Below, in pieces: positions 181-39,642 of a stretch of 64,000 nucleotides of DNA. Both the position numbers and the translations under genes were made by a program. Under the pieces are notes generated by a model. It searched no databases. It was not told the DNA's origin and worked only from the letters and a program-made list of their open reading frames with translations. The stretch comes from an uncultured bacterium (GTDB lineage: Bacteria; Hydrothermota; UBA3072; B12-G15), in assembly GCA_964596115.1 (NCBI GenBank), contig CAZQRW010000002.1:15480-79479 (forward strand), in the 5' to 3' direction. The number at the start of each line of letters is the position of its first letter. Positions within the stretch are counted from its first letter, which is position 1.

Positions 181-1299
181 TTACCATCCCCTTTTGTAGG
201 TTAAACTTAACAATGTTGAAGTTTCGTCAAAGTATAAATCGTTCAATCCAGTTCCAAGGTTTAACTCATCTCCTTTGTAGGAAAGTCCTGAAAAATTAAA
301 CCCAAACCCAAGCTCATTTAAGCCAGCTCTGTATCCGAGGCCAAAGGTATATGTGCCCCTTGTCAAAGAAGAATTCGCATAAATATTACTATACATATAG
401 CCAAGCCTTATAAGAATGTTAGAGGTTAGTAGATGCTCAACACCAAAATGAAATGATTCAACATTATCAAGATTCTCTTTTACACCATCCTTTGTTAAAA
501 CTGACCAGGGAATATATGAAAGCTGGAAATAAATCTTCGCAGGAAGAGGGCCAGGGAAAAAGTAGTCAATTCCAAAGGCATATTGCTCTGGATAATTTAT
601 ATCCGCTACCGTATCCTTTGAGATCTTAATAGCAGTACCATATACAAAACCAATGGTCAAATTCTTAATCGGACTTAAGGTCAAGCCTCCATAGTAACCA
701 TTACCCTTTATACTATAATTTGAATGATTGATAGTAGTATCTGTATCAGTATAATGTTCGTAATTATAAACATCATTTCCCCTTATAATTCTTACTCCTC
801 CTCCGATGCCAATCCATTTATATTTGAATCCAATGTTTGGAGTAAACGAAAATCCATTCAAATCAACTGTCTCATTTTCTGTCAGAATTACCCTATAAAA
901 CTCATCCCTCTCAGTATTTTCATAACTGTACTTTCCCGCCAGAATAGGGAAAAAGTCAAAGCCGATCTGAAGCATATTTTTAGGGATCCTAAAGGAAAAG
1001 GTGTATGGGCCTGCAAGAAAATAGGTGTTATCCGCCACAGTTGTATTACCCACGGTATTATCAAAACTATCAAACACCCTCTTACTCCTTCTCTCTGTAG
1101 GCATCAACAAGGACCCATCAACCAACACCTGAGCATTTTGCAAGAAATATCCTGGGTTGGCAGTAGATACTACCCAAACATCTCCCACACCGTTCATAGA
1201 GGCGTCAAGCACAAAATTAAAATTCCCATAATTCGTAGCCTCCGCAATACCACCAAAAAGAACGAAAGAAACAAAGACTAAAAGTATTGTTTTACGCAT
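181..1299 (-). CDS. Outer-membrane beta-barrel protein with a signal peptide; function unknown
   Basis: N-terminal signal peptide (MRKTILLVFVSFVLFGGIAEA). The rest is rich in alternating aromatic and Gly/Tyr/Asn residues typical of a beta-barrel. It ends with an aromatic residue (…YKRGW). Confidence 0.4.
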   Translation of the reverse strand: MRKTILLVFVSFVLFGGIAEATNYGNFNFVLDASMNGVGDVWVVSTANPGYFLQNAQVLVDGSLLMPTERRSKRVFDSFDNTVGNTTVADNTYFLAGPYTFSFRIPKNMLQIGFDFFPILAGKYSYENTERDEFYRVILTENETVDLNGFSFTPNIGFKYKWIGIGGGVRIIRGNDVYNYEHYTDTDTTINHSNYSIKGNGYYGGLTLSPIKNLTIGFVYGTAIKISKDTVADINYPEQYAFGIDYFFPGPLPAKIYFQLSYIPWSVLTKDGVKENLDNVESFHFGVEHLLTSNILIRLGYMYSNIYANSSLTRGTYTFGLGYRAGLNELGFGFNFSGLSYKGDELNLGTGLNDLYFDETSTLLSLTYKRGW

Positions 1300-1300
1300 A

Positions 1301-3721
1301 TTACCACCACCATATAATTTGAAGGTTTCCAGTATAATTTGTCTTATTATCTACAAATCCATTTATTAAGGTCGGGGTGCCATTTTCGTAATGATATTCT
1401 CCGTTAGAGTATTCAAGCCCAACGTGATTGTATTCAGTATATTTTCTTCTGAACTTAAGTCTTAAAAACAGATTATCAGAAACTCTGTCAATAAATGAAA
1501 CAAAAAATTTATTTCCGTTACCATAGAGAAAGTCAATACCTGTATCTTCAAAAATCCACTGACTCATATCATCCGTCTTCCATATCGCACTCCCCAGATA
1601 AGTAGATAGTCTCTCTGAAAAACGATGTTCAAAGACAAGTGATATATACCCGCCATCCATAACCTCATCCTCTGTGTATTTTAAGGAGGACTGAAGATGA
1701 ACCCATCCGTATCTCGCCCTGAAATCTATATAATCATAGTCAGTTAGCAGGGCATATATCCTGAAAGTAAATTCATTTGTCACAGATTTGGTAGGGGTTG
1801 TGGGTCTCTCCCTCCACTTTGCCTGATATTTGTGTTTAATCCTTATCCTTAAAGGATAGATTGGCCTATATTCAAGTTCGCTTTGCACTCTAACATTAGG
1901 CAAACCTATCGCAAGATTTTTCCAGACATCCACATATGCCCTGGTAATAGTAAAATGTCTATTTATCCTGTACCTCGTCTCCACATAAAGTCCATCCTCA
2001 GGTTTTGGGGCAGGATAGTTCTGCATATCGGAATAAAATGGATCAAGCAATCTATAGGGCTTCTCAAAGGGCGTATCATCAAATCTCTTCTGCTCCATAA
2101 ATGGCCTTGCATAAGGGTTATCGTAACCAACATCATAATGCCTCTTCCTGAAAAGAACATAAATATTATTGTATTGAACAATTCCACCAAAGATATAAGC
2201 ATTAGAAGGTACCCCTGTAAACTGGTGAACAAATTCTCCCTCAATTCCAAAATTATTTATCACAGTCCTCCCGGATATGCCACCAAACTTCTTTTCCCTT
2301 CCATTTGTCATATCAAGATATGTTGGGGTAATCAATTCATCTGCGTCATACTTAAACTCTACATCTTCCCTTGAAATTTTGAATGGCTTATCAGTATGTA
2401 TTTTAAGCCCATTTAACGAAATGTATGTTCCAAAAGGAATGAAAAAAAGGTTGGAAAGGTCCACTCCAAAACTTCCACCGTAGAATTCCTCATTGAATTT
2501 ATCCTTGAACTCTGAGAGGTTATATGGATTTGTAAAATAAAGATTGATTGTTGAATCCCTATTCAAAATACCATCCTTTTTATCCATAGAGTAAAAAGAT
2601 ATAAGTTTAAATCTCTTATAACGAGAAAGTAATCCCGTTCCCCGAGCGGCAAACTCCTGCGACGAAGTTATATCACCGTAGACACCCTCCGCCTTTTCTA
2701 TCGACCTTGCAAGCATATCATCCACGTTTTGAAACATTACTCCCTGCCCTATTGTTACATTGTAGTTACCGACATAAAGTTTATCTATGGGGCCAATATT
2801 GATAAGTCCAATATAACCCTTATAGTTATTTGACCCATCTGGCATTTCTCCTGCCCTTACACCGAGAGAAAGCCTATCCCCATAATCTGTCCTTGCCCTT
2901 ACAAAAATCTTCCGCATATAGTTGTTACTCAATGCCTCTTCCTTTTCATTCTCCAATCTCTCCATAAGTTTTTTCATATTTTCTCTATCCCAACCAGCAG
3001 AATCCATTCTCTGATAGGCATACGTTGTGTCTGAATTGAATGTGTCTAAAACAGGATCATAGTCTATACTGTTGAATAGAGAGTTTACATAATCAACTGT
3101 ACCATCCACATTCTTCCCTCCCATATCCTCCATATCTTCTCGTGAAAACCAGTCAACATTTGCCTTCCCAAAACCTACCCATTTCTTTGGTTTTTGCTCT
3201 TCAGAGGTAACGATAAAATCCCTTATATTTCTGTAGCCATAACTTGTTAAATATGGTGCATATCGAAGATCTGAAGAATACCTTATATTTTTCCATGTCC
3301 TTACATAGTTGATGGCAGATACTGCATCCACAAGGTTCACCCTGCTCAACATAAGTATATCGTCTATATGAACCCTGTTTATATTCATAGGTTTTATTGT
3401 TAATGCCTCCCATTCATCCATTAAGGCCTCGGAGGGTCTTTCTTCTGATGCAAGCCTCTCCTGTATCTGTTCAATATAGTAAGGAATATTCTTTATCTCA
3501 GGTGGTTTCTTGATTATAATAAGATCCTTTAATTTTTTGAACTCCTCTGGTTTCAAGATGTCATATAACTCATAATAAGATGAAATATATTTATGGGTTT
3601 CCCTATACTCATATAACTTCTCTGCTGATGCATCTGAAATGGGAAGCAGCTTTATCTCATTAATGGATGCCCTATTTATGTCAAGGGGCATTGTAACCGA
3701 GATTAGTAGTATCCATATCAT
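1301..3721 (-). CDS. Large secreted or outer-membrane protein whose N-terminus carries a ComEA-like helix-hairpin-helix DNA-binding motif
   Basis: The N-terminus reads 'PLDINRASINEIKLLPISDASAEKLYEYRE'. This matches the ComEA HhH consensus (INtAS.eEL..LPGIG...A..I..YRE). The remaining ~750 aa are beta-rich, with many aromatic and Gly residues. The gene sits in an operon with two OM barrels. Confidence 0.5.
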   Translation of the reverse strand: MIWILLISVTMPLDINRASINEIKLLPISDASAEKLYEYRETHKYISSYYELYDILKPEEFKKLKDLIIIKKPPEIKNIPYYIEQIQERLASEERPSEALMDEWEALTIKPMNINRVHIDDILMLSRVNLVDAVSAINYVRTWKNIRYSSDLRYAPYLTSYGYRNIRDFIVTSEEQKPKKWVGFGKANVDWFSREDMEDMGGKNVDGTVDYVNSLFNSIDYDPVLDTFNSDTTYAYQRMDSAGWDRENMKKLMERLENEKEEALSNNYMRKIFVRARTDYGDRLSLGVRAGEMPDGSNNYKGYIGLINIGPIDKLYVGNYNVTIGQGVMFQNVDDMLARSIEKAEGVYGDITSSQEFAARGTGLLSRYKRFKLISFYSMDKKDGILNRDSTINLYFTNPYNLSEFKDKFNEEFYGGSFGVDLSNLFFIPFGTYISLNGLKIHTDKPFKISREDVEFKYDADELITPTYLDMTNGREKKFGGISGRTVINNFGIEGEFVHQFTGVPSNAYIFGGIVQYNNIYVLFRKRHYDVGYDNPYARPFMEQKRFDDTPFEKPYRLLDPFYSDMQNYPAPKPEDGLYVETRYRINRHFTITRAYVDVWKNLAIGLPNVRVQSELEYRPIYPLRIRIKHKYQAKWRERPTTPTKSVTNEFTFRIYALLTDYDYIDFRARYGWVHLQSSLKYTEDEVMDGGYISLVFEHRFSERLSTYLGSAIWKTDDMSQWIFEDTGIDFLYGNGNKFFVSFIDRVSDNLFLRLKFRRKYTEYNHVGLEYSNGEYHYENGTPTLINGFVDNKTNYTGNLQIIWWW

Positions 3722-4473
3722 CTGTAACCTGCTCCAACTGTATATGTTGGTTCAATGCTGCTATTGTATTCGTATGAAAAATTAACATTTACAGGAGCAG
3801 CATTAATCCCAATGCCAAAGGAAACCTCAAAAGGCGATGAATGGAAACCAGTTCTTAATGCAATTTTATCACCTATTATAAATTCCTGACCAAAGAGGAA
3901 TCTTGTGGGTTTATCAAACTCTTTTTCAAAACCAAAGGCTGTTGTTGCGCTCTTGTATGGTTTGTAAGAAACACTCATACCCGCCTTTGTCGGAAGGCTG
4001 TACTTCACATCCTTGCCTACCGTTGGTCTATTCACGTTATAAACTGCCCCTCCGATATACCACAATTCCCAAACCCTTGAAATTACCCCTATATCAACGC
4101 CATAGGTAAACTCATCACCAAATCTTGACTGAAATAGGTAAAAACCCTTTACAGTATAACCGAGTTTTGTATCTTCTCCAAGGGGAACGCCCTGTGATAT
4201 AGAAACTACGGTTTCATTCTGAAGATCCTTTACATTTCTGTATCCAAGATTAAAACCAAAGGATTTCATTCCCAAAAAAATTCTCCCCGTACTAACTGTG
4301 CTATAGAGACTCCTATATGAAGTGCTAAGAGTAAAATCCTTCATAAATCCGCAGGAGGCAGGATTAAATGAAATGACCGGGTCAGGGATGCTGTAATCTG
4401 CACCTCCCATTGCATTACCAATGGGAGAAAAAAGAAGGTTTTCAAAAACCGATACTATTAATAACATTGCCAT
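3718..4473 (-). CDS. Small porin-like outer-membrane beta-barrel protein
   Basis: N-terminal hydrophobic segment. Alternating-pattern beta strands with Gly/Tyr/Phe-rich turns. C-terminal '…VGAGYR'. Its start overlaps the stop of the upstream gene by 4 nt, suggesting translational coupling. Confidence 0.4.
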   Translation of the reverse strand: MAMLLIVSVFENLLFSPIGNAMGGADYSIPDPVISFNPASCGFMKDFTLSTSYRSLYSTVSTGRIFLGMKSFGFNLGYRNVKDLQNETVVSISQGVPLGEDTKLGYTVKGFYLFQSRFGDEFTYGVDIGVISRVWELWYIGGAVYNVNRPTVGKDVKYSLPTKAGMSVSYKPYKSATTAFGFEKEFDKPTRFLFGQEFIIGDKIALRTGFHSSPFEVSFGIGINAAPVNVNFSYEYNSSIEPTYTVGAGYR

Positions 4474-4474
4474 A

Positions 4475-6439
4475 TTATCTTCCTAATTTTGTGCCCACTA
4501 TAATGGGCTTAGTTAATTTTTCAGTTTTTCCATCTGTTTCTTTTACAACAATATGAATGAGATAAAGTCCGATAGTTACTTTTTTATCATACTCATCCTC
4601 TCCATTCCAGTATGTCTCGTATGGCCCACCTGGATAATTCACAACAAGAATCTTCACCAATCTGCCCTCAGCATCAAAAATCTTTGCAGTAATGCTTGAG
4701 TTATGTGGAGCGGTTATTTTTACATCCGCAACCTCACCCAGGTCATAAGAGAATGGATTTGGTGTAATTGTACAGGTGAGTACCTCTGTTGTTTCCGAAG
4801 GTATCTCCATAACTATATCGTTCATATCTCTGGGAAGAAGTTGATAACCAGTTGTATATGGTTCATGGGAGTCATATTGACCACCAACACCCGTAATAGT
4901 AAATATGTCTCCCTTACCCATCATATTTCTCATTGAGTCAACATTTATACCTGTGCCTGTTTCTAACCTTATGGTTATATATGCCTGACCATTTGCAACG
5001 GTAAAATTGTAACCCCCTCCAGCTGCTATTGGTGTTAATGGTGTCACGACCTTTGATTTTTTTACACAGAGGAGCCTTCCCTCGGTGGATTCATCAAGAC
5101 CAACCGATGTGGCGAGCGTCTCCGGTTTAAATATGGGATCCCATCTCGAAATTAGTGTGACATCGGATGGATTATTCACCTTCACCTCTGTTAATCCATT
5201 ATATTCATCTACAGTACCCTTTATCAAATACCTATAATTCCTTTTTACAGGGATAGCATCATAGGAAAATATATCAACTCCGCTGGTGGTATCATTCAAA
5301 TAGAAACCGGTCCCCGTTGGAGAGATATTTCCCGTTACTGCATAGCCGAGCACAGTAACAACATCACCAAGCATACCAGAGGTAACGCCATCAGGGCCTG
5401 GATTCTGAACGTCTCTTAGATCTGTTATTGTGGGCATTGCTATAATTTTTATGAATGGTTTTCCAGCAACAGAAAAAATGTTATTATCCATACTTCCCTC
5501 AACCCTGAATGTAAATGTGCCTGTCGTATCAATAATGACATTATTAACCTGGATCATCACTGTATCAAATATACTGGTGCCAAAGACCTTAATTGTGTCT
5601 CCTGTTGAATCGGATACAACTACTGCTGAATCATTTGAGGGAAGATCAATTGAACCAACATTATGAGACCAGATAATTTCGGGAGGGATAAAAACTCTGA
5701 GATAACTCACCGTATCTATAGTACTTATGACCCGAAATTTTAGATTAAAATTAACCCTCTCAAAAAATTGAACAGGGTCACAATCTGCATAGAGCCCCTC
5801 TATCTCTCCAGGCTCAAGGATATCTCTGTCATCTCTGGGAAGGATCTTGTAATCGTAGTAATAGTCTACCGGACCTGTAACACTATATGTATCACCTACA
5901 ACAGGTTCAAAGTAAAAAATCCTATCGTCAACTATTGCAGGTCCACTTCCATCATCAACCTCCCACTCCCCATAGGCATTAACACCCTGCGTGCAAGCTG
6001 CTTTTACAACCTTTACAAGCACACCTTCATACTTCTCATCGGATATATTACCGGTGGAATCAATAACAGGGTCAGGGGGCGTTGTAGAACCAAGTACTGT
6101 AATTTCATCTGGATAAGAGACCTCTGTAACACCATAGTATTCGCTCACCTTCCCAGTAATTCTTACACTATCCCCCCTCTCAACACCTGGATTTGAGGAA
6201 CCATTGTATATATAAATCCCTCTCCAGGCACCACCTGGTTTCATCTCAACAAAGAAGGCATATCTTGTACTTCCACCAGACAGGTATGTAAAAGGTGCGG
6301 TAACAACACCGTAGAAAGTGACGGTGCTGTCAACAAATGGTGAAGAACTGGCGTGTCCCTGAATCTCTTCAATAGTATGAACCCCTCCAATCATAGAGAG
6401 GGGCAAAAAGGCCAATAAAAAAATTGATATTTTCTTCAT
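4475..6439 (-). CDS. Secreted multi-domain protein with two extracellular-nuclease-type OB-fold repeats and a C-terminal FlgD-Ig-like/T9SS-type sorting domain
   Basis: Signal peptide at the N-terminus. Residues ~20-150 read 'HTIEEIQGHASSSPFVDSTVTFYGVVTAPF…GDSVRITGKVSEYYGVTEV'. This is the I.EIQG…SP..G..VT..GVVT pattern of the N-terminal OB-fold in COG2374 extracellular nucleases. A second copy follows ('GDVVTVLGYAVTG…IKGTVDEYNGLTEV'). The C-terminus reads 'KIFDAEGRLVKILVV…GLYLIHIV', a FlgD-Ig/Por-secretion-tail-like domain. The gene is paralogous to 6453-7397. Confidence 0.55.
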   Translation of the reverse strand: MKKISIFLLAFLPLSMIGGVHTIEEIQGHASSSPFVDSTVTFYGVVTAPFTYLSGGSTRYAFFVEMKPGGAWRGIYIYNGSSNPGVERGDSVRITGKVSEYYGVTEVSYPDEITVLGSTTPPDPVIDSTGNISDEKYEGVLVKVVKAACTQGVNAYGEWEVDDGSGPAIVDDRIFYFEPVVGDTYSVTGPVDYYYDYKILPRDDRDILEPGEIEGLYADCDPVQFFERVNFNLKFRVISTIDTVSYLRVFIPPEIIWSHNVGSIDLPSNDSAVVVSDSTGDTIKVFGTSIFDTVMIQVNNVIIDTTGTFTFRVEGSMDNNIFSVAGKPFIKIIAMPTITDLRDVQNPGPDGVTSGMLGDVVTVLGYAVTGNISPTGTGFYLNDTTSGVDIFSYDAIPVKRNYRYLIKGTVDEYNGLTEVKVNNPSDVTLISRWDPIFKPETLATSVGLDESTEGRLLCVKKSKVVTPLTPIAAGGGYNFTVANGQAYITIRLETGTGINVDSMRNMMGKGDIFTITGVGGQYDSHEPYTTGYQLLPRDMNDIVMEIPSETTEVLTCTITPNPFSYDLGEVADVKITAPHNSSITAKIFDAEGRLVKILVVNYPGGPYETYWNGEDEYDKKVTIGLYLIHIVVKETDGKTEKLTKPIIVGTKLGR

Positions 6440-6452
6440 TTATCACCCTTTC

Positions 6453-7397
6453 TTAAAGATGTATAAATCTTGATACATTTGTCGTATCGTTTGTTTTCAA
6501 TATAATGAAGTATATTCCTGCGTTTGTTCTTTTCAGATCAATGTTATATTTATGTGCACCTCTTTCAAACCTCCCTTTCATTACCCTCTTTACCAACCTG
6601 CCATTGATGTCATAGATACCTATCTCTCCCTCGGTATCCTTATCCAGAATAAATGAGACCTCTATATTAGAGGGAGCGAAATTGGAAGAAACCTTAAATG
6701 TAATGACGTTCCCACTATTTATCTCCCTTATGCCACTAACATTAACAATATCCGAAGAATCCCTGGGCTCAACCTTGAAACTATCAAAGGCAAAATTTAA
6801 TGGTCCTATAACGGTGTAAGAATCTCCAAGTATTGGGGTATAGGACACATTCCAGTCGTCGACTCTCAAAGGGCCTGAACCATCATTTATTTCCCACTCG
6901 CCATGGCCCAGATCAGTATTGGTGCATTGTGCATTTTCTACTTTTAAAAGGACTGATTCGTATTGTTCATCGTTCGCATCACCAGTAGAAACTATTAAAG
7001 GTAAAGGTACCCCTACACCACTTGCGAGAATACTGTATGTATTACCGTAAGCAAACTCAGTCATATTGTTATATTCCTGAATAGTGCCGGTTATTTCAAC
7101 ACTATCACCTCTGGAAACATCCTGTGTCCAGGAGTAACCTTGATATGCATATATTCCTTTCCAGGCACCAGCAGGTTTTTCCTCAATAAAGAATCCCCTT
7201 GAGAATACACCTGTAACCACGCCAGAAGTAGTAACAGTACTGCCCACATATGGAGAGTCACCTGATGGATCTGTCGTATATTGGATTTCGTAGATAGAAT
7301 GGTATGAGCCCAAAAGAGGAATAACCATCGTCAACCCCAAGAAGATCCATAACCTTTTCATAAAACACCTCCTTTTTACTTTTTTTAACTTTAACAC
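6453..7397 (-). CDS. Secreted protein with one extracellular-nuclease-type OB-fold domain and a Por_Secre_tail (T9SS type A) C-terminal domain; paralog of 4475-6439
   Basis: Signal peptide at the N-terminus. 'HSIYEIQYTTDPSGDSPYVGSTVTTSGVVTGVF…GDSVEITGTIQEYNNMTEF' aligns with the N-domain of the neighbouring gene. This includes a shared 'GEWE(V/I)DDGSGP…VDD' block. C-terminal 'IGIYDINGRLVKRVMKG…AGIYFIILK' matches the T9SS C-terminal sorting-domain consensus. Confidence 0.55.
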   Translation of the reverse strand: MLKLKKVKRRCFMKRLWIFLGLTMVIPLLGSYHSIYEIQYTTDPSGDSPYVGSTVTTSGVVTGVFSRGFFIEEKPAGAWKGIYAYQGYSWTQDVSRGDSVEITGTIQEYNNMTEFAYGNTYSILASGVGVPLPLIVSTGDANDEQYESVLLKVENAQCTNTDLGHGEWEINDGSGPLRVDDWNVSYTPILGDSYTVIGPLNFAFDSFKVEPRDSSDIVNVSGIREINSGNVITFKVSSNFAPSNIEVSFILDKDTEGEIGIYDINGRLVKRVMKGRFERGAHKYNIDLKRTNAGIYFIILKTNDTTNVSRFIHL

Positions 7398-22096: not shown

Positions 22097-24757
22097 ATGA
22101 CTGAGCCCCGGTTTTTTCTCTTTCCAATTTCAGATAATGATATATATTATTTTTATATGATTCCAAAAAAACTGGAGAGGTATAAGATCATAGAATGGCT
22201 GGGGGGCGGAAGATTTGGGGATGTATACCTTGTACAGGACAAACTCCTTGAAAAAAAATTTGCACTGAAGATAGGAAGGGGTAAGGGAGACGTGGATGGT
22301 TATCTTAAAGAGGCAAAAATCATCTCCGGGCTTGAACATCCCAATATTATAAGGTTCTATACCGCTGATATGATCGAAGGAAGAATATTTATCGTAACAG
22401 AATTTATTGAAGGGAAAAGCCTTCGGGAAATCATTGAGAAAGAAGCACCCCTGGACATAAAAACGGCACTTTCTATTGGAAAAGACATACTAAAAGGGCT
22501 TTCCTATGCCCATAAAAGGGGTATTATTCACAGGGATTTGAAACCTGAAAATATTATGTTAACAAAGGATAATACAGTTAAGATTGTTGATTTTGGTATT
22601 TCAAGGATTGGTGAAGATATAACAGCATCCATTGCAGGGACACCCCCTTATATGCCTAAAGAGGCATGGAAGGGGAAATATGACGTGAGGTCTGATGAGT
22701 GGTCTGCAGCACTCATTATCTATGAGATGCTCACTGGTGTAAATCCATTTTTTTCAGAAAATCTTGAAGATGTTAGAAAAAAGATATTTAAGGGCAAAAT
22801 AAGACCATTAAAAACCGTTGCATCAAGAATAAGTATCGAAATCGAAGAGGCATTGAAGAAGGCATTATCTCCTGATATGGATGATCGTTTCCCTTCAGTA
22901 AATGATTTTCTAAGAACGTTAAGGGAAGAGACTCATTCTAACATTTCAACTATGAAGATGAAAAAAAGACCTTCAATAAAGGGCCTTCCATATCCTCTTA
23001 CAGAGGAAGAAAGGGAGGCACTAATCCATGAAGAAAATGTCCTCTTGCTGGGAGGACCAGGAACTGGTAAAACTTATACGTTAACTGCAAAGGTTATTGA
23101 CCTTATAAACAGGGGGATTTCTCCTGAGTCTGTCGTACTAACAACATTCACTCTTAGAAACTGGCATGAGCTTGAAAAACGTTTAGAAAAGGAACTGGGA
23201 ACTCTCACAAGAGATATAATACTCGGCAATTTTCACAATCTCTGTATGAGAATATTGAGGAGGGACATAGGAATCTTAGGCTTTCCTGAAGACTTTACTG
23301 TTATTCCATCATCAACCCAGGCAATAATTATGAAGTCGATATCAAAAAATTATGGGGTTAACCACAGGTACGCTATGAGAAAGATCCAGGAATATAAAGC
23401 AAGAGGACTAAAGGCAAAAGAATTTATAGAAAGAAAAATGGAAAATACGATAGTAGAAATATGGGATCAATATCAAAGTAGACTGAAGAAAGAGAACCAT
23501 CTGGATTATGATGATGTACTCATCTTTACAAGGGATATTCTAAAAAGAAATCCGGGGTTAAAAAATTTTTATACTAATAAATTTAAATACCTCGTCATTG
23601 ATGAATATCAGGACTTGAATCCTGTTCAGGTTGAGATTGTAAGATTGTTATTTTCAGGGGAAAATCAAGTATTTGCTACCGGTGATGACGACCAGATGAT
23701 ATATGGATGGAGAGGTGCTAATCTCCGAACGATAAAATTCTTTGAGAAATATTTTCCTCCCGCTATCATATTAAAATTGACAAGATCCTTTAGATTGCCA
23801 GTGAGCATATCAAACGCCGCAGCAAATCTCATAAAATACAACAGAAACAGAGAAGAAAAAATAATATTCCCTAAAAAAGTAGCGGGTGAAGGTGTCATAG
23901 TAAAACAGTTTGCAAGGAAAAATTCAGAGGCATCTTTTTTAGTAAAGGAAATTACAAAACTTGTAAAGGAGGGCTATAACTTCTCAGAGATCGCTGTAAT
24001 GTTCAGGGTCAATAGATACAGCAGATTGATAGTAGAGTCCCTTTTGAACGCAGGCATACCTCATTCAAGTCTGGGTGGTGGTTTCTATGAAAGGAAAGAA
24101 ATCGCTGGACTAATCACGCTTATGGAATTTATTATCACAAAAAAACAATCTAAACTACTCTCCGCGATAAATTTTCCTGAGACTCTTGTAAAGAAAAGAA
24201 AAAAGACAAAATCAAAAGACATAAAAAACTACATTGAGGGGAAAAAAGATGAAGCAGCCAAAGAGCAATACAAAAAATTGCTATCACTCTCAGAAATGAT
24301 AAAGGGTATGGGAACTGCCACTGCTGTAAGGTCCGTTGTGAAATCATTGGGTCTTATTGAATATTACTCTTCTAAGGAAAATGGCATCGAAAGAATCGAA
24401 AACATAGATGAATTTATTCAGTCTGCCGAGGATTTTGAGGAAAAATTTCCAGGGAAAAATCTCAATGCATTCATCACATATGTAAAAGATATAAAGAGGG
24501 CAGGGCTTTCCGGGCAGGAAGGTGTAAACCTTCTTACCGTTCATTCTGCAAAAGGGCTTGAATTTCCTGTCGTATTTATTCTGGGATTGGAGGAAGGCAT
24601 TTTCCCTTTATTGAGAGCAATGATAACAAGGGAGGAAATGGAAGAGGAGAGAAGGCTTATGTATGTGGCTATGACAAGAGCAATTAGAAAATTATACCTT
24701 ACTTACTCAACCCCAGCAAAACCCTCACGATTCCTATCTGAAATATTCGGCCAATAG
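22097..24757 (+). CDS. Fusion protein: N-terminal Hanks-type Ser/Thr protein kinase joined to a C-terminal UvrD/PcrA-type superfamily-1 DNA helicase
   Basis: The kinase domain has a Gly loop 'LGGGRFGDVY', catalytic lysine in 'FALKIG', catalytic loop 'HRDLKPENIML', 'DFGIS' and 'GTPPYMPKE'. The helicase domain has motif I 'GGPGTGKT', motif II 'DEYQDLNPVQ', motif III 'TGDDDQMIYGWRGA' and motif VI 'VHSAKGLEFPVVFI…YVAMTRA'. It is a single uninterrupted 886-aa ORF. The true start is probably at the ATG near 22157 (MIPKKLERYKII). Confidence 0.8.
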   Translation: MTEPRFFLFPISDNDIYYFYMIPKKLERYKIIEWLGGGRFGDVYLVQDKLLEKKFALKIGRGKGDVDGYLKEAKIISGLEHPNIIRFYTADMIEGRIFIVTEFIEGKSLREIIEKEAPLDIKTALSIGKDILKGLSYAHKRGIIHRDLKPENIMLTKDNTVKIVDFGISRIGEDITASIAGTPPYMPKEAWKGKYDVRSDEWSAALIIYEMLTGVNPFFSENLEDVRKKIFKGKIRPLKTVASRISIEIEEALKKALSPDMDDRFPSVNDFLRTLREETHSNISTMKMKKRPSIKGLPYPLTEEEREALIHEENVLLLGGPGTGKTYTLTAKVIDLINRGISPESVVLTTFTLRNWHELEKRLEKELGTLTRDIILGNFHNLCMRILRRDIGILGFPEDFTVIPSSTQAIIMKSISKNYGVNHRYAMRKIQEYKARGLKAKEFIERKMENTIVEIWDQYQSRLKKENHLDYDDVLIFTRDILKRNPGLKNFYTNKFKYLVIDEYQDLNPVQVEIVRLLFSGENQVFATGDDDQMIYGWRGANLRTIKFFEKYFPPAIILKLTRSFRLPVSISNAAANLIKYNRNREEKIIFPKKVAGEGVIVKQFARKNSEASFLVKEITKLVKEGYNFSEIAVMFRVNRYSRLIVESLLNAGIPHSSLGGGFYERKEIAGLITLMEFIITKKQSKLLSAINFPETLVKKRKKTKSKDIKNYIEGKKDEAAKEQYKKLLSLSEMIKGMGTATAVRSVVKSLGLIEYYSSKENGIERIENIDEFIQSAEDFEEKFPGKNLNAFITYVKDIKRAGLSGQEGVNLLTVHSAKGLEFPVVFILGLEEGIFPLLRAMITREEMEEERRLMYVAMTRAIRKLYLTYSTPAKPSRFLSEIFGQ

Positions 24758-24847
24758 AACTCTCAAAGGAAACAATTCCACCCTTGACATAGGGTCAAAA
24801 TGTGTTATATAAAATTGATTAACTCTATAAACATTAAGGAGGTGGAA

Positions 24848-25216
24848 ATGAGCCAGGCTTTGGGAAGACATGTTTTGCTCGAGTTTTTTGGATGTGCTCC
24901 TGAGACTCTTTCAAGGGTTAATTATGTTAAGGACGCACTTTTAAATAGTGCAAGGATTTCAAATGCTAAAATTGTAGACACACTTTTCCACCAGTTTCTT
25001 CCCTATGGAGTATCAGGAGTAGTTGTTATTGAAGAGTCACATTTTACAATTCACACCTGGCCAGAACACGGCTATGCGGCAATAGACCTCTTCACCTGTA
25101 GTAACGATGTGGATGTTGAAAATGCAGTAGAATACCTCAGAAGTACGCTCCAACCGGAAAATGTTGAAAGGATAGAGGTTGACAGGGGAGCAACCTTTAA
25201 ACTGGAGGCTGTATGA
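24848..25216 (+). CDS. speH: S-adenosylmethionine decarboxylase proenzyme (small class 1b type)
   Basis: 'VIEESHFTIHTWPEHGYAAIDLFTC' contains the self-processing ES|S site and the conserved HTWPE block. AAGGAGGTG lies 5 nt upstream of the ATG at 24848. Confidence 0.85.
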   Translation: MSQALGRHVLLEFFGCAPETLSRVNYVKDALLNSARISNAKIVDTLFHQFLPYGVSGVVVIEESHFTIHTWPEHGYAAIDLFTCSNDVDVENAVEYLRSTLQPENVERIEVDRGATFKLEAV

Positions 25217-26067
25217 CGGAGGATGACCGATTATACTTTGTTGAAAAAAGTATAAAAGAAATCATCTCTTTCTACACCGTTGATGAAAGAATAATTAAAG
25301 AGAGAACGCCTTATCAGCTCGTTGAGATATACAAGTTAAAAGGATTCGGGAAATCATTGTTCCTTAATAGCGCTCTCCAATCTACGGAGTACGACGAGTA
25401 TATTTATCATGAGGGTCTTGTTCAACCTGCTATGTTTGCTCACCCTGAACCAAAAAGTGTCTTTATCGGGGGAGGAGCTGAGGGTGCTACACTGAGGGAA
25501 GTTTTGAGACATAAGGAAGTTGAAAACGTGACTATGATTGAAATAGATAAGAGAGAGTGGGAAATTTGCAATCAATTTTTACCCGAATTCTCTCAGGGTA
25601 AATTTTCTGATGAAAGGGTAAATCTTATCTTTGATGATGCAAAAACAATACTTGATAGAGAAGAAAAATACGATGTTATTATTTTTGACCTCCTCGACCC
25701 AGCGCCTTTAACCCCTTCAGAGGATATGTACAAGATACCATTTTTAAAAAAATTAAAGAAAAAATTGAAACCCGGTGGAATATTTGTTACACAGGCAGGA
25801 TCTATATATCTCAGTACTGGCAAATTCTTTTTTAGTATATGGAAACACTTAAGCAGTGTGTATTCAAATGTAGTTGCTTACGAATTACACATACCTTCAT
25901 TTCAGTTGCCCTGGGGAATCATAATAGCTTCAGATAAGCAGAATTTATTTACTCCAAAAAGAACAGACGTCAGGGGACTAAAATTTTACTCTACAGATTA
26001 CCATTCTTCTCTGTTAAATTCTTATCTTCATTTAAAGAATGAGCTGGATTTCAGAAAATCAGACTGA
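25213..26067 (+). CDS. speE: Spermidine synthase / polyamine aminopropyltransferase
   Basis: 'VFIGGGAEGATLREVLRH' (GGGDGG-type methyltransferase-fold motif) and 'DLLDP'. The start overlaps the speH stop (ATGA). Confidence 0.85.
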   Translation: MTEDDRLYFVEKSIKEIISFYTVDERIIKERTPYQLVEIYKLKGFGKSLFLNSALQSTEYDEYIYHEGLVQPAMFAHPEPKSVFIGGGAEGATLREVLRHKEVENVTMIEIDKREWEICNQFLPEFSQGKFSDERVNLIFDDAKTILDREEKYDVIIFDLLDPAPLTPSEDMYKIPFLKKLKKKLKPGGIFVTQAGSIYLSTGKFFFSIWKHLSSVYSNVVAYELHIPSFQLPWGIIIASDKQNLFTPKRTDVRGLKFYSTDYHSSLLNSYLHLKNELDFRKSD

Positions 26068-26824
26068 GAATCTGAAACTATCCTTTCGTATAAAAAAACG
26101 TCTTTTAAAGACCCGTTCAAAGTTCCAGCTTATAGAGGTCTACGACACATATGAATATGGTAAGCTTCTTCTCCTCGATAGAAAGGTAATGTTCACCGAG
26201 AAGGATGAATTCATATACCACGAAATGATTGTTCACCCTACGATGGGTATGATAAAGGCAAGAAATATACTCGTAATTGGCGGCGGAGATGGTGGAACCG
26301 TAAGGGAACTGCTAAAATATCCGGTGAATAACATCACACTCGTAGAAATTGATGAAAAAGTAATAGAAACAGCAAAAAAATTTTTCCCTCGTATGGCAGA
26401 TACGCTAAATGATAAAAGGGTTAATATAATAATTGATGATGGTTCTAAATACGTTTTAAACTCAGAGGAGGAATATGACCTCATCATTTCAGATTCAACG
26501 GACCCTATCGGTCCTGGGAAAGTGCTATTTGGAGAAAATTATGTTAAAGCCATCTCAAGAATATCAAATGTGCTTGTTTCTCAATCTGAATCTCCCATAT
26601 TCCATAGGGAATTAATAAAAAAATTCCATAGTATAATAAAAAAATACTTTAAAAATCTCTTGTTTTATTTTGTTCCTATCCCTACTTATCCATCGGGTAT
26701 ATGGTCCTTTACTGTGGGTCTGAATGTAAATATTAAAAAACCCAACAACAAATCTCAGAAATTTTATTCCCCATCATTATTTGAAGGACTTACCCATATA
26801 CCAGAAGCATTTAAAATTAAATGA
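26039..26824 (+). CDS. Second polyamine aminopropyltransferase paralog (spermidine-synthase family)
   Basis: 'ILVIGGGDGGTVRELLKYP', 'VEIDEKVIE' and 'IISDSTDPIGPG' match the aminopropyltransferase family. It is clearly diverged from the upstream copy. It overlaps both neighbours. Confidence 0.8.
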   Translation: MSWISENQTENLKLSFRIKKRLLKTRSKFQLIEVYDTYEYGKLLLLDRKVMFTEKDEFIYHEMIVHPTMGMIKARNILVIGGGDGGTVRELLKYPVNNITLVEIDEKVIETAKKFFPRMADTLNDKRVNIIIDDGSKYVLNSEEEYDLIISDSTDPIGPGKVLFGENYVKAISRISNVLVSQSESPIFHRELIKKFHSIIKKYFKNLLFYFVPIPTYPSGIWSFTVGLNVNIKKPNNKSQKFYSPSLFEGLTHIPEAFKIK

Positions 26825-28299
26825 AGGAATCCTTGAGAAAAAAATTCCTTGAAAATGAAGGGGGTAAAATCCGACCTGCTGGAGGATTTATAAAAGTCGC
26901 CCTTGGTTATCCAAATAATTACGCTGTCGGTATGTCCAACCTTGGTTTTCAGTGGATATATTTCCTTATAAACAAAAAGAAAGAATCATTTGCTGAAAGG
27001 TTCTTTTATTCTAATGATTATCCTGTTACCCTTGAAAGTGGAAGAAAGATCGTCCTATCAGACATTATAGCCTTCTCTATTTCCTTTGAACCGGATTATT
27101 TCCGTGTGGTTGAGATGATAAGAAACACGGGGCTTAATCCCTTAACGGAAAAGAGAAAAGAAAATGACCCTATAATCATAGCAGGGGGCGGATTTGCGAC
27201 GATTAATCCAGAACCTATTGCTCCATTCTTTGACATTATCTTTATTGGCGATGGGGAGGGAGTGATTGAAGAATTTATAGAAACAGTGTCCAAATACAAG
27301 GGAAAAAAGGATTGGAAGAAAAAGGTAAAAGAAGATATAGCAGGCATTAATGGAATATATATACCTGAGTATATCAAAACTGGTTTTACCAATGAAAACT
27401 ACAAAATAGAAGGGAATTTCCCAGTGAAAAAAAACATCTATTCAGGAGAAGAGCCGGCATTTACCCCTATATTGTCAAATTTTACTCATTTCAAGGATAT
27501 GGAACTTATTGAAATTGAAAGAGGCTGCAAATTCAGATGTAAGTTCTGTTCTGTCGGATATGTAAATAATCCTTTCAGAATGTATAAAAAAGATAAAATA
27601 TTAAATAATATTTTCCATAAGAAAGTTGGACTCATCGGGGCTGCAGTAGCAGATTATACAGGGTTAGAAAGTCTTCTTGATTCTCTGGTGGGAAAAGTTG
27701 AGCATTTGGGCATCTCTAGCGTAAGAGTGGATAGACTTACCTCTGACACTCTGAAACTGTTAAAAAAACTTTATGTAAATTCTATAACTATTGCCCCAGA
27801 GGTTGCCAGTGACAGAATGAGAAAAAAAATTGGGAAATTTGTGAGTCTGAATAAGATCTTAAAGGTTGTAGAAATAATGAACAATGTTGGAATCACGCAT
27901 CTTAAGCTTTACTTTATCATTGGCCTTCCGGGTGAGGAAGATCAAGATGTACAAAGAATAATTGAAGATGTAAAGATTATCTCAAAAACTTTCAGTGGAA
28001 ATATTTCAATAAGCGTAAATCCCTTTGTTCCAAAACCATTTACCCCATTTCAATTCGAACCATATATAGGAAGAAAAATCTTCTCAAGAAGGGCAAGAAT
28101 GTTGCGTGTTGGTTTGAGGAATGTTAAATTAACAATTAAACCATATATGGGAGGATTGATTCAAACAATTCTTTCAAGGGGAGGACGTGATGTTGCCACA
28201 GGTCTATTAAAGGGCAATGTTATGGATTATAAATATTATAGTGGTAGACTTCAAAATTCTCACCTATACCCGTGGAATGTAATAGAGACAAAAGTATGA
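26821..28299 (+). CDS. Radical SAM enzyme with an N-terminal Rossmann/B12-binding-like domain; the last gene of the speH-speE-speE operon
   Basis: 'ERGCKFRCKFCSVGY' is a CxxxCxxC cluster motif. The N-terminal 'ALGYPNNYAVGMSNLGFQ' is typical of rSAM proteins with an N-terminal flavodoxin/B12-like domain. The start overlaps the upstream stop (ATGA). Confidence 0.8.
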   Translation: MKESLRKKFLENEGGKIRPAGGFIKVALGYPNNYAVGMSNLGFQWIYFLINKKKESFAERFFYSNDYPVTLESGRKIVLSDIIAFSISFEPDYFRVVEMIRNTGLNPLTEKRKENDPIIIAGGGFATINPEPIAPFFDIIFIGDGEGVIEEFIETVSKYKGKKDWKKKVKEDIAGINGIYIPEYIKTGFTNENYKIEGNFPVKKNIYSGEEPAFTPILSNFTHFKDMELIEIERGCKFRCKFCSVGYVNNPFRMYKKDKILNNIFHKKVGLIGAAVADYTGLESLLDSLVGKVEHLGISSVRVDRLTSDTLKLLKKLYVNSITIAPEVASDRMRKKIGKFVSLNKILKVVEIMNNVGITHLKLYFIIGLPGEEDQDVQRIIEDVKIISKTFSGNISISVNPFVPKPFTPFQFEPYIGRKIFSRRARMLRVGLRNVKLTIKPYMGGLIQTILSRGGRDVATGLLKGNVMDYKYYSGRLQNSHLYPWNVIETKV

Positions 28300-28320: not shown

Positions 28321-28758
28321 TTACCAGTGACCTTTACCCTTTTTCTTATAAACTTTCCACATGGGGTTACCTTTCTTATCCCTTATGAAAATCACCTTTT
28401 TACCTGAATTTATCTCTGATGCAAATATTACCCTTTTCCCAGAGTAAAATCCCCTGGAGCCTGTTATAATTACCTTCATCCCAGGCCTAAAAATCCAACC
28501 TCTCTTTATTATCCAAGGTCTTGGGCCGGTATGAACAAAGAATATTCCATTAGGTGTCTTAACCTTCAAAACCAGAACCTCTCCAAAATCATCTACAAAA
28601 ACATACTTTACCCCAACCACTGTCCCTGTCAGAGTAAGAACAGTTGAAGGATTATAAAGGGAAACATAAACTACCTTTCTTCTTGTTACAACAGGTGGCC
28701 CATAGCATCCTGCATAGACCATACTAAATAATGACAGTAGGACAAATATCTTTTTCAT
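28321..28758 (-). CDS. Small secreted protein or lipoprotein with a basic C-terminus; hypothetical
   Basis: Signal peptide with a lipobox-like 'VYAGC'. C-terminal 'KVYKKKGKGHW'. No recognisable domain. Confidence 0.35.
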   Translation of the reverse strand: MKKIFVLLSLFSMVYAGCYGPPVVTRRKVVYVSLYNPSTVLTLTGTVVGVKYVFVDDFGEVLVLKVKTPNGIFFVHTGPRPWIIKRGWIFRPGMKVIITGSRGFYSGKRVIFASEINSGKKVIFIRDKKGNPMWKVYKKKGKGHW

Positions 28759-28814: not shown

Positions 28815-28861
28815 CTCCAAATTACACATATATATCCACGATATATATGTGTAATTTGGAG
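28815..28861. repeat. Perfect 21-bp inverted repeat with a 5-nt spacer: CTCCAAATTACACATATATAT-ccacg-ATATATATGTGTAATTTGGAG
   Basis: Read directly from the sequence. 28815-28835 is the exact reverse complement of 28841-28861. It lies 59 nt downstream of the rpmB stop and 57 nt upstream of the start of the 28321-28758 gene. Confidence 0.9.
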
Positions 28862-37673: not shown

Positions 37674-38708
37674 ATGGGTAAACTCAGTAATAATGTTAAA
37701 AGAGGAGTAAGGTTATTTTTAATCATATTAATCATCACTATTACATTACTACTTGTTTTCACGGTATCAAGACAAACCTGGGGTGCAATAAAAAAGATGA
37801 GCTTTGTATATCTTATTATTGCCCTTGTACTGTGGTTTTTATATGTACTCTTTGATGGTATAAGACTCCAGATAATAATTCACGGCATAACAGGAAGATG
37901 GATAAATCTTGTGACATCCCTTGAGGTCATTCTTACCGGTTCATTTATGGCAGCAGTAACACCCTTCCAGACTGGCGGGCTTCCTGTACAGCTCTATATT
38001 CTATACAAAAATAAAATTTCTCTTGGAAAAGGAACCCTGGCTCTCTTTTTAAGAGGAATTTTTTATGCACTTTTTATCATAACTCTAATTCCTTTTTTGA
38101 TACCCCTATACAGATCACAGGTTGAACAAGGTTCAATGAAACTCTTGCTAACATATAGTATTATTATATACAGTGTAATTATTATTGGATTTTTTGTCAT
38201 TATATTAAAACCAAGAATTATTAAAAGGGGCCTCCTCAAAATATTCTACAGAAGAAAAAAGAAAACAAGGGTTGTAAGATTTATAGGAAAAACATTTAGT
38301 GAAATTGAAGAGATGCGTAAGGAATTCTGGAGATTTACATCAAAGAAAGGGCTTCATTCCCTGGGGGCTTATATATTCACTTTTCTTAGTTCCATACCAT
38401 ACTATTCTATTGCACCTCTAATCCTCTACGGTCTTGGGATAAAAGTTCATTTCTTTTCAGTATTTTTCTTACAGGTATTTTTAATTCTTTTCACATTCTT
38501 TTTCCCTACTCCTGGTGGTACTGGAGCAGTAGAAGGTGGTTTTGCAGCGTTATTTGCTACTGTTGCACCGAGATACATACTCGGTGTGTATACACTGATC
38601 TGGAGATTTTTTACATCATATATAACTGCAATAATAGGAGGATTCTTTACTTTGAAGATTCTCAAATTAGGAGAAATCGATTTTGAACGAGAGGAAAAAA
38701 ATAAATAA
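37674..38708 (+). CDS. UPF0104/LPG-synthase-TM-like (flippase-like) integral membrane protein
   Basis: About 8 TM helices. 'TPFQTGGLPVQLYIL' and C-terminal 'FFPTPGGTGAVEGGF' resemble the MprF-type flippase-domain family. Confidence 0.6.
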   Translation: MGKLSNNVKRGVRLFLIILIITITLLLVFTVSRQTWGAIKKMSFVYLIIALVLWFLYVLFDGIRLQIIIHGITGRWINLVTSLEVILTGSFMAAVTPFQTGGLPVQLYILYKNKISLGKGTLALFLRGIFYALFIITLIPFLIPLYRSQVEQGSMKLLLTYSIIIYSVIIIGFFVIILKPRIIKRGLLKIFYRRKKKTRVVRFIGKTFSEIEEMRKEFWRFTSKKGLHSLGAYIFTFLSSIPYYSIAPLILYGLGIKVHFFSVFFLQVFLILFTFFFPTPGGTGAVEGGFAALFATVAPRYILGVYTLIWRFFTSYITAIIGGFFTLKILKLGEIDFEREEKNK

Positions 38709-39642
38709 ATACGTAAGAACATTCTTTTTTATATCATTTATTTCAATAACAATTGTACTCATACTTACCTCAAGTAAAAAAACATTCTTTTCCATAAGAT
38801 TAATATCTTTTTCGTACTTCTTCTATGCTCTTTTAACCACTTCCTTGAGATATCTCTTTGACATCCTCAGAACCCAGACCATCGTTAACGCTATGGGGAA
38901 AAGGATAAATTTTAGTACTGCATTTACCTTCATATTTGGAGGTCAATTTCTTGGGGGGATTACTCCTTTCCAAGCAGGAGGAATTCCCTTACAACTATGG
39001 ATATTAAAAAGGAAGAATTTAGATTATGCTGAAGGTACAGCCACAATTTTCTTAAGAGGATTACTCTCTGCTCTTATTTTTCCTTTCCTACTTCCGTTTG
39101 TATATCAATATGGAAAAAATATTAAAAGTGACATATTTAGGGGATTACTTTTCTATATAATAATATTTTATGGGGTTGTACTACTTGTCGTTTTATTGTC
39201 CATAATCTTCACAGGCTTTTTTAAAAAAATTCTCCCAATAAAATTTGTAAATGGCGTTCAGAATTTCAAAAATGTCTTTACCAGCAAACTTAGAAAGCAT
39301 CCTATACCGATATTAATCTCCTTTATCTTTACAATTCTATCGTTGGGTTTTTATTTTTTCACTGCCCCATTACTACTAAAAGGGTTAGGGCTAAAAGTCT
39401 CTCTTATTAAAGTTGCAATACTTCAGGTGGTACTCACGTATGGGTTAAATTTTACTCCTTCACCGGGTGCAAGTGGATTTGCAGAAGCTGGTGCCTTAGG
39501 TATATTTTCTGTTGTTTGCCCAAAGGAATTACTTGGAATATACGTCGTATTATGGCGTTTTTTAACAGGCTATCTCGGAATAATTGTAGGAGGTATTGTC
39601 TCAAGCAAAATCACATATCCAGAAACCTCTTTGCATCATTAA
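38683..39642 (+). CDS. Second UPF0104/flippase-like membrane protein; tandem paralog
   Basis: It has the same topology and motifs as the upstream gene ('TPFQAGGIPLQLWIL', 'FTPSPGASGFAEAGA'). It overlaps that gene by 26 nt. Confidence 0.6.
   Translation: MNERKKINKYVRTFFFISFISITIVLILTSSKKTFFSIRLISFSYFFYALLTTSLRYLFDILRTQTIVNAMGKRINFSTAFTFIFGGQFLGGITPFQAGGIPLQLWILKRKNLDYAEGTATIFLRGLLSALIFPFLLPFVYQYGKNIKSDIFRGLLFYIIIFYGVVLLVVLLSIIFTGFFKKILPIKFVNGVQNFKNVFTSKLRKHPIPILISFIFTILSLGFYFFTAPLLLKGLGLKVSLIKVAILQVVLTYGLNFTPSPGASGFAEAGALGIFSVVCPKELLGIYVVLWRFLTGYLGIIVGGIVSSKITYPETSLHH

Follow-up and report, generated by a model that had tools for sequence, protein, structure and literature searches.

We analysed a 64 kb stretch of DNA from an uncultured bacterium (contig CAZQRW010000002.1; the whole stretch is called the window here) and focused on four plus-strand genes that lie head to tail: speH, speE1, speE2 and a gene for a radical S-adenosylmethionine (rSAM) protein. 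On balance, we favour the reading that a standard two-aminopropyltransferase polyamine operon has acquired at its 3' end a relocated TIGR03960-like rSAM gene, of a family usually linked to ftsZ, and that the rSAM protein likely keeps its family function. An earlier note on this DNA had instead suggested a possible modified or long-chain polyamine pathway, with the rSAM enzyme hard-wired into the operon. The host belongs to candidate division WOR-3, as judged from the names of cluster members of the window IMP (inosine monophosphate) dehydrogenase and of the rSAM protein of a related lineage (P0003), and the contigs carrying these clusters derive from hydrothermal metagenomes.

Genomic context of the rSAM gene and of the polyamine genes

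The genomic surroundings of the rSAM family were assessed at 160 loci from other phyla (80 genomes and 80 metagenome contigs, among the matches listed), a sample of distant relatives that contains no WOR-3 locus. Neighbour clustering at the 80 genome loci revealed FtsZ (51 loci), FtsA (48), FtsQ (45) and MurB (31) as upstream same-strand neighbours, while YfiH/PgeF-like and YggS-like genes often lay downstream, and Pfam confirmed FtsZ, FtsA, FtsQ and MurB upstream as well as YfiH and YggS downstream. Across all 160 loci, ftsZ was found upstream of the rSAM gene in 95 (same strand in 94), corresponding to 95 of the 128 loci with enough upstream sequence; 32 of the 65 loci without ftsZ had less than 2 kb of upstream sequence and were uninformative. 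The two genes were directly adjacent in 89 loci, with the rSAM start 200–870 nt past the conserved FtsZ core, and one example locus reads murG-murC-ftsQ-ftsA-ftsZ-rSAM-amidase_3-YfiH. The ftsZ-adjacent members came from Desulfobacterota, Zixibacteria, Ignavibacteria, Chloroflexota, Acidobacteriota and other groups. The window contains no ftsZ, and its rSAM gene follows speE2 instead. Because the rSAM gene adjoins ftsZ in other bacteria, its product is probably not a polyamine enzyme, and the ftsZ-adjacent position offers a better lead to the function of the family than the WOR-3 polyamine context. A literature search returned no paper on an association of this rSAM family with ftsZ or the division and cell wall (dcw) cluster. 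Most of the sampled loci (L009–L168; see also, e.g., L176:4435-7524) show the rSAM gene directly after the ftsZ that ends a murC/murB/ddl-ftsQ-ftsA-ftsZ series, often with a YfiH/PgeF, YggS or amidase gene next.

The linkage to polyamine genes was then traced from the rSAM side. A word-indexed search with the rSAM protein returned P0001 (100% identity), P0002 (89%) and P0003 (42%), followed by a flat field at 34–38% that comprised Zixibacteria, KSB1, Desulfobacterota and others. The order speH-speE-speE-rSAM was seen only in the window lineage, P0002 and P0003. At the P0003 locus (L001), the genes overlap by 4, 17 and 8 nt and the upstream genes are different, with a convergent gene for ribosomal protein L28 downstream as in the window. 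An exhaustive search of 1.84 billion cluster representatives assigned 1886 clusters to the family with E ≤ 1e-30, which makes it a large one of about 1900 when clustered at 50% identity; P0271 (41% identity, 346 bits) was the sole relative above the general family level, and P0003, of the same clade, was absent from the listed representatives. P0271 is equally close to the window and P0003 rSAM proteins (41–42%), and its gene lies in the context cdd-DUF2007-rSAM-RnfB-like FeS-lgt with no speE nearby, on a contig collinear with the WOR-3 locus L170 over S16-KH-TrmD-L19-RNase HII-UPF0102. The next-nearest homologues, P0420 and P0417, have unrelated gene contexts, and tblastn against the fetched flanks detected neither speH nor speE near the rSAM gene at any of the 160 other-phyla loci. 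In the P0271 lineage (L178:7001-10051, GCA_029258725.1), the RnfB-like gene, which carries an Fe-S/ferredoxin domain, starts 20 nt after the rSAM gene on the same strand and is followed by lgt; its product could be the electron donor of that rSAM protein.

Similarly, the polyamine genes were found in the same arrangement without the rSAM gene. After the L001 clade, the nearest relatives of speE1 were three WOR-3 lineages (L169–L171, 54–56% identity), in which speH-speE1-speE2, with the 29-nt overlap, is followed by CutA1 and L28 genes on the minus strand and by no rSAM gene, the gap between speE2 and CutA1 being 0–13 nt. A further WOR-3 speE locus (P0266) also carries no rSAM gene. The best 120 matches of a search with P0271 included no close rSAM from contigs of the lineages with rSAM-less operons, a result that is not conclusive. 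The operon of L174 and L175, speH-speE (Thermus type)-pyruvoyl arginine decarboxylase-speE-agmatinase, also contains no rSAM gene, so the two-speE module stands alone. The linkage of the polyamine genes and the rSAM gene, which in a conserved functional unit would be maintained, is not kept across distant relatives of either partner. By this distribution, the rSAM gene is an add-on of one WOR-3 sub-clade, explained by a gain in that sub-clade or by a loss from its sister group. Most likely the gene moved to the 3' end of the operon, and it would have arrived there in one WOR-3 sub-lineage so as to overlap the speE2 stop codon. The check proposed in the earlier note, whether the linkage is conserved in relatives, came out positive for the two closest lineages (89% and 42%) and negative for P0271, the 160 distant loci and the sister operons without an rSAM gene, which leaves the notion of a hard-wired polyamine enzyme poorly supported.

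Identity and conservation of the rSAM protein

The rSAM protein matched PF19864 (Radical_SAM_N2, 121.3 bits) and PF04055 (64 bits), while its match to the B12-binding domain PF02310 remained sub-threshold (21.9 against a cut-off of 32.1). Its CxxxCxxC motif consists of C236, C240 and C243, which are the only cysteines of the protein and are invariant across the alignments. The AlphaFold2 model (predicted local distance difference test score, pLDDT, 92.4) had MgmA, MtaB, TsrM, TokK, AprD4, CysS, MiaB and OxsB as its Foldseek neighbours in the PDB, at 13–16% identity, and a sequence search of the PDB yielded one marginal match only. The 492-aa rSAM protein with a CxxxCxxC cluster and an N-terminal Rossmann/B12-like domain, as the earlier note described it, was thus recovered with PF19864, PF04055 and Foldseek. 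TIGR03960 was the sole family that matched at E < 1e-30; a TIGR03960-like class, which the note had weighed against a B12-dependent rSAM class, stood as to type, but the score was below the family cut-off (255.7 against 462.3 bits). The P0003 protein scored 272.5 bits and homologues from other phyla 283–476 bits, P0067 alone passing, and the scores run as a continuum from 476 to 255 bits with no gap. TIGR03960 members are, by the model description, fused or adjacent to a TIGR03936/DUF2344 "radical SAM-linked" protein. The rSAM protein has no C-terminal extension, and no such domain was found in the scanned open reading frames (ORFs; all except three at the window's right end) or in the public-contig Pfam annotation.

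To compare the rSAM protein with its family, we used 117 non-WOR-3 homologues and found it identical at 76 of the 88 columns (86%) that are at least 90% conserved among them. Its median identity to non-WOR-3 homologues was 37%, compared to 40% among those homologues themselves, and its root-to-tip length in a neighbour-joining tree was typical. The rSAM protein is about as diverged as family members of different phyla are from one another, and this divergence is ordinary; we therefore rejected the idea that the protein has diverged faster because it took on a new function. Against the 89%-identical relative, the ratio of nonsynonymous to synonymous substitution rates (dN/dS) was 0.11, indicating purifying selection. 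The family-conserved residues are retained, and the rSAM protein most likely performs the reaction of its family rather than acting on polyamines, as far as can be told from its sequence. A literature search for the function of the TIGR03960-like family returned nothing. The reaction would start with reductive cleavage of S-adenosylmethionine (SAM) at the single [4Fe-4S] cluster, after which the 5'-deoxyadenosyl radical would abstract a hydrogen. Judging from the structural model, cobalamin-assisted methyl transfer through the Rossmann-like N-terminal domain is possible. AprD4 is not known to use cobalamin, and with an AprD4-like fold and a sub-threshold B12 match, cobalamin use does not follow for the rSAM protein.

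The secondary similarity to MtaB, MiaB and RimO, seen with both Foldseek and NCBIfam, raised the alternative that the rSAM protein is a methylthiotransferase of this type acting on tRNA or a ribosomal protein, which would fit the L28 gene found a short way downstream, on the opposite strand, at every WOR-3 locus with the rSAM operon. We regard this as highly improbable. The L28 gene also adjoins the operons that lack the rSAM gene, all models of this kind remained far under their cut-offs (TIGR01579, 52 against 357 bits), the Pfam scan found no TRAM domain, and with three cysteines in total the protein cannot hold the auxiliary cluster that such enzymes need. The methylthiotransferase role was rejected on the missing auxiliary [4Fe-4S] cysteines.

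The polyamine operon, its junctions and neighbouring features

The four genes and a candidate promoter are listed in Table 1.

Table 1. Coordinates and assignments of the four operon genes and the candidate promoter in the window
Feature	Coordinates	Strand	Length	Assignment	Evidence
speH	24848..25216	+	122 aa	class 1b pyruvoyl S-adenosylmethionine decarboxylase	PF02675 E=3e-38; TIGR03330 137.5 bits against a cut-off of 75.65
speE1	25213..26067	+	284 aa	aminopropyltransferase, Thermus SpeE/thermospermine-synthase type	PF01564 139 bits; motifs GGAEG, DLLDP
speE2	26039..26824	+	261 aa	aminopropyltransferase, canonical spermidine-synthase type	PF01564 187 bits; motifs GGGDGG, DSTDP
rSAM gene	26821..28299	+	492 aa	radical-SAM protein, divergent relative of the TIGR03960 family	PF19864, PF04055, C-terminal helical domain
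candidate operon promoter	24785..24815	+		putative promoter in the 90-nt gap after the kinase-helicase gene	TTGACA, about 17 nt, TATATAAA-like element; picked out by eye only

The SpeH protein contains an EESH self-cleavage motif with the Glu-Ser self-processing site (sequence context VVIEESHFTIHTWPE). SpeE1 fell below the NCBIfam equivalog cut-offs (best NF002010, 212 against 260 bits) and passed PF01564 (cut-off 22.9), and its nearest solved structures were the Thermus thermophilus enzyme (3ANX/1UIR, E about 1e-56) and thermospermine synthase (6BQ2, 1e-52). It is a member of the aminopropyltransferase superfamily, of the Thermus/thermospermine type by likeness. SpeE2 passed both NF002010 (287.5 against 260) and TIGR00417 (260.5 against 249.55); its nearest solved structure was Bacillus subtilis SpeE (1IY9, E = 2e-59), in an alignment that begins at residue 3 and in which the motifs are visible. 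The two products share 32–39% identity, and together with the hidden Markov model (HMM) matches this bears out the decarboxylase and the two distinct aminopropyltransferases named in the earlier note. The dN/dS values of the speE genes were 0.05 and 0.13. Agmatine-based routes to long polyamines are known from work on Thermus and Thermococcus polyamines, and the series of speH, a Thermus-type speE and a canonical speE fits such thermophile routes. From their sequences, the three genes most likely represent an ordinary thermophile-type polyamine operon, and a long-chain or thermospermine polyamine module, with products predicted from the enzyme types, is a reasonable reading. SpeH would make decarboxylated SAM (dcSAM), SpeE2 would put the first aminopropyl group on putrescine or agmatine, and SpeE1 would produce longer polyamines by aminopropylating agmatine or tri-amines. 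Neither the operon nor the rest of the window was found to contain a gene for arginine decarboxylase or agmatinase.

L174:5603-9001 and L175 (GCA_053940425.1, GCA_053997435.1) present a compact five-gene complete agmatine-route module with two aminopropyltransferases. In L008:5480-6296 (JGI 3300033156), on an otherwise identical public contig, speE1 has lost 35 nt close to its 3' end. The resulting frameshift yields a 264-aa product, and the shortened gene overlaps speE2 by ATGA. Either this variant is natural or the assembly is wrong there.

The head-to-tail order with ATGA or short overlaps that the earlier note reported was confirmed, with overlaps of 4 nt between speH and speE1 (25213–25216, shared ATGA), 29 nt between speE1 and speE2 (26039–26067) and 4 nt between speE2 and the rSAM gene (26821–26824, shared ATGA); the 29-nt overlap is also kept in WOR-3 relatives. 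AAGGAGG precedes the speH start, and the public contigs have the identical gene call. The consensus promoter scan did not list the TTGACA/TATATAAA-like pair upstream of speH. Within the four-gene unit, the signal scan found neither plus-strand terminators nor above-chance promoters. The four genes probably form one transcription unit. Because the rSAM gene overlaps the speE2 stop codon and leaves no intergenic room for a promoter of its own, its expression presumably depends on the operon promoter. Overlaps are, however, the norm in this genome, where 28 of the 48 adjacent same-strand ORF pairs of the window overlap. In 10 pairs the overlap is exactly 4 nt, and the overlapping yet unrelated pairs by Pfam assignment include IMP dehydrogenase/DapF, PTS-EIIA/HslU, SpoIID/Mut7-C and aspartyl-tRNA synthetase/histidyl-tRNA synthetase. 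The overlaps are therefore uninformative on functional coupling, and as evidence of it they were rejected. They indicate tight packing and probable co-transcription, not a common pathway.

We also weighed the proposal that the rSAM protein, recruited from a TIGR03960-like family, is a dedicated polyamine-tailoring enzyme. It would use radical chemistry, such as a C-methylation (for example a cobalamin-dependent one) or a cross-linking, to modify spermidine, thermospermine, a longer polyamine or a conjugate. Several observations favour it and weigh against simple relocation. The rSAM gene overlaps the speE2 stop codon in two lineages whose rSAM proteins are only 42% identical and whose upstream flanks differ, and an overlap shared despite such divergence means that the junction has long been kept. 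The WOR-3 rSAM proteins are short (492–495 aa, compared to a family median of 564 aa) and have the lowest TIGR03960 scores of the family, which could reflect a change of substrate. A polyamine-connected role may be compatible with the biochemistry of an uncharacterised family, and a second, ftsZ-linked family copy in the same genome, if present, would make the operon copy a paralogue. Further support comes from the fold likeness to the cobalamin-dependent rSAM methylases MgmA, TsrM, TokK and CysS, from the purifying selection on the gene and from the lack of detectable internal terminators or promoters; nor would the proposal clash with known pathways, since described polyamine routes use no rSAM enzyme, and a literature search turned up no paper on radical-SAM involvement in polyamine synthesis. 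If true, polyamine metabolism would gain its first radical-SAM step, a kind of reaction new to this well-mapped pathway that would explain unusual thermophile polyamines, and the family, with its nearly 1900 clusters, would have a first hint of a substrate. Against it, the operon occurs in sister lineages with no rSAM gene attached, the gene lies elsewhere in the P0271 lineage, which is equally close, none of the 160 distant homologues is polyamine-linked, 86% of the family-conserved positions are retained, divergence is ordinary, and the overlaps carry no weight in this genome. We consider the proposal weak, because its support comes down to adjacency, and rate it as quite unlikely.

The kept junction also bears on another alternative, in which the linkage is regulatory rather than catalytic and the rSAM protein does its family job, possibly in division or the envelope, while being co-expressed with SAM-consuming, growth-coupled activities. 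Each of the four products uses SAM or one of its derivatives, the usual partner of the family is the growth-coupled ftsZ/dcw cluster, and the junction is kept in two lineages. However, the arrangement is absent from other WOR-3 relatives, and no upstream regulatory element was found; the Rfam scan detected no riboswitch in the window and no other RNA near the operon, its hits being just two tRNAs at 55 kb. The alternative is also hardly distinguishable from a neutral relocation, and we regard it as unlikely. The relocated, family-typical rSAM gene at the end of an ordinary polyamine operon thus remains our preferred reading.

Additional features were observed around the operon and elsewhere in the window. 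Just upstream, positions 22097-24757 (+) encode an 886-aa protein in which a Ser/Thr protein kinase domain at the N-terminus is fused to a full UvrD/PcrA-type helicase, and its kinase part has sub-threshold matches to defence-system kinases (MADS6, BREX PglW). Convergent with the rSAM gene, positions 28321-28758 (−) encode a small, probably secreted protein that is labelled PF26390 MamS_MamX in the annotation of the public contigs; our own Pfam scan of it gave no match at E ≤ 0.01. This MamS/MamX-like gene and the minus-strand L28 gene are separated by a gap that contains, at 28815-28861, an inverted repeat of 22 nt without mismatches around a 3-nt loop (CTCCAAATTACACATATATATC / GATATATATGTGTAATTTGGAG). 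Five consecutive, tightly packed ORFs (372, 806, 251, 654 and 314 aa) at 181-7397 (−) had no Pfam match at E ≤ 1e-8, and two tandem paralogues with a lysyl-phosphatidylglycerol-synthase transmembrane domain (PF03706) overlap by 26 nt at 37674-39642 (+).

Comparison with known systems

The closest described counterpart of the rSAM protein is the TIGR03960 "B12-binding radical SAM protein" family (rSAM_fuse_unch; PF19864 + PF04055), with which it shares the domain order, the CxxxCxxC motif and a full-length alignment. It differs in being about 70 aa shorter than the median homologue and in lying in a polyamine operon, not after ftsZ. The class B rSAM methylases MgmA (9CCB), TsrM (6WTF), TokK (7KDX) and CysS (9N1C) are the best structural matches (template modelling scores, TM-scores, 0.5–0.68) and have in common with it the Rossmann-like N-terminal domain and the rSAM barrel, but sequence identity to them is 13–16%, PF02310 is sub-threshold in the rSAM protein, and AprD4 has a similar fold. 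MiaB, RimO and MtaB carry three N-terminal auxiliary-cluster cysteines and a TRAM domain, whereas the window protein has neither.

SpeE2 and SpeH are ordinary members of the B. subtilis SpeE (1IY9) and B. subtilis-type SpeH (TIGR03330) groups, with canonical motifs and no notable difference. SpeE1 aligns over residues 24–242 with Thermus SpeE and with the plant/diatom thermospermine synthase (6BQ2), and both the dcSAM motif G-G-x-E-G and the catalytic motif D-x-x-D-P are present in it, the former reading GGAEG where Thermus has GGGEG. T. thermophilus SpeE (1UIR/3ANX) is described as a triamine/agmatine aminopropyltransferase. At the level of the operon, the two-speE operon of L174 and L175 has the same order, with speH first and a Thermus-type aminopropyltransferase ahead of a canonical one, whereas the window operon is without the arginine decarboxylase and agmatinase genes and ends in the rSAM gene.

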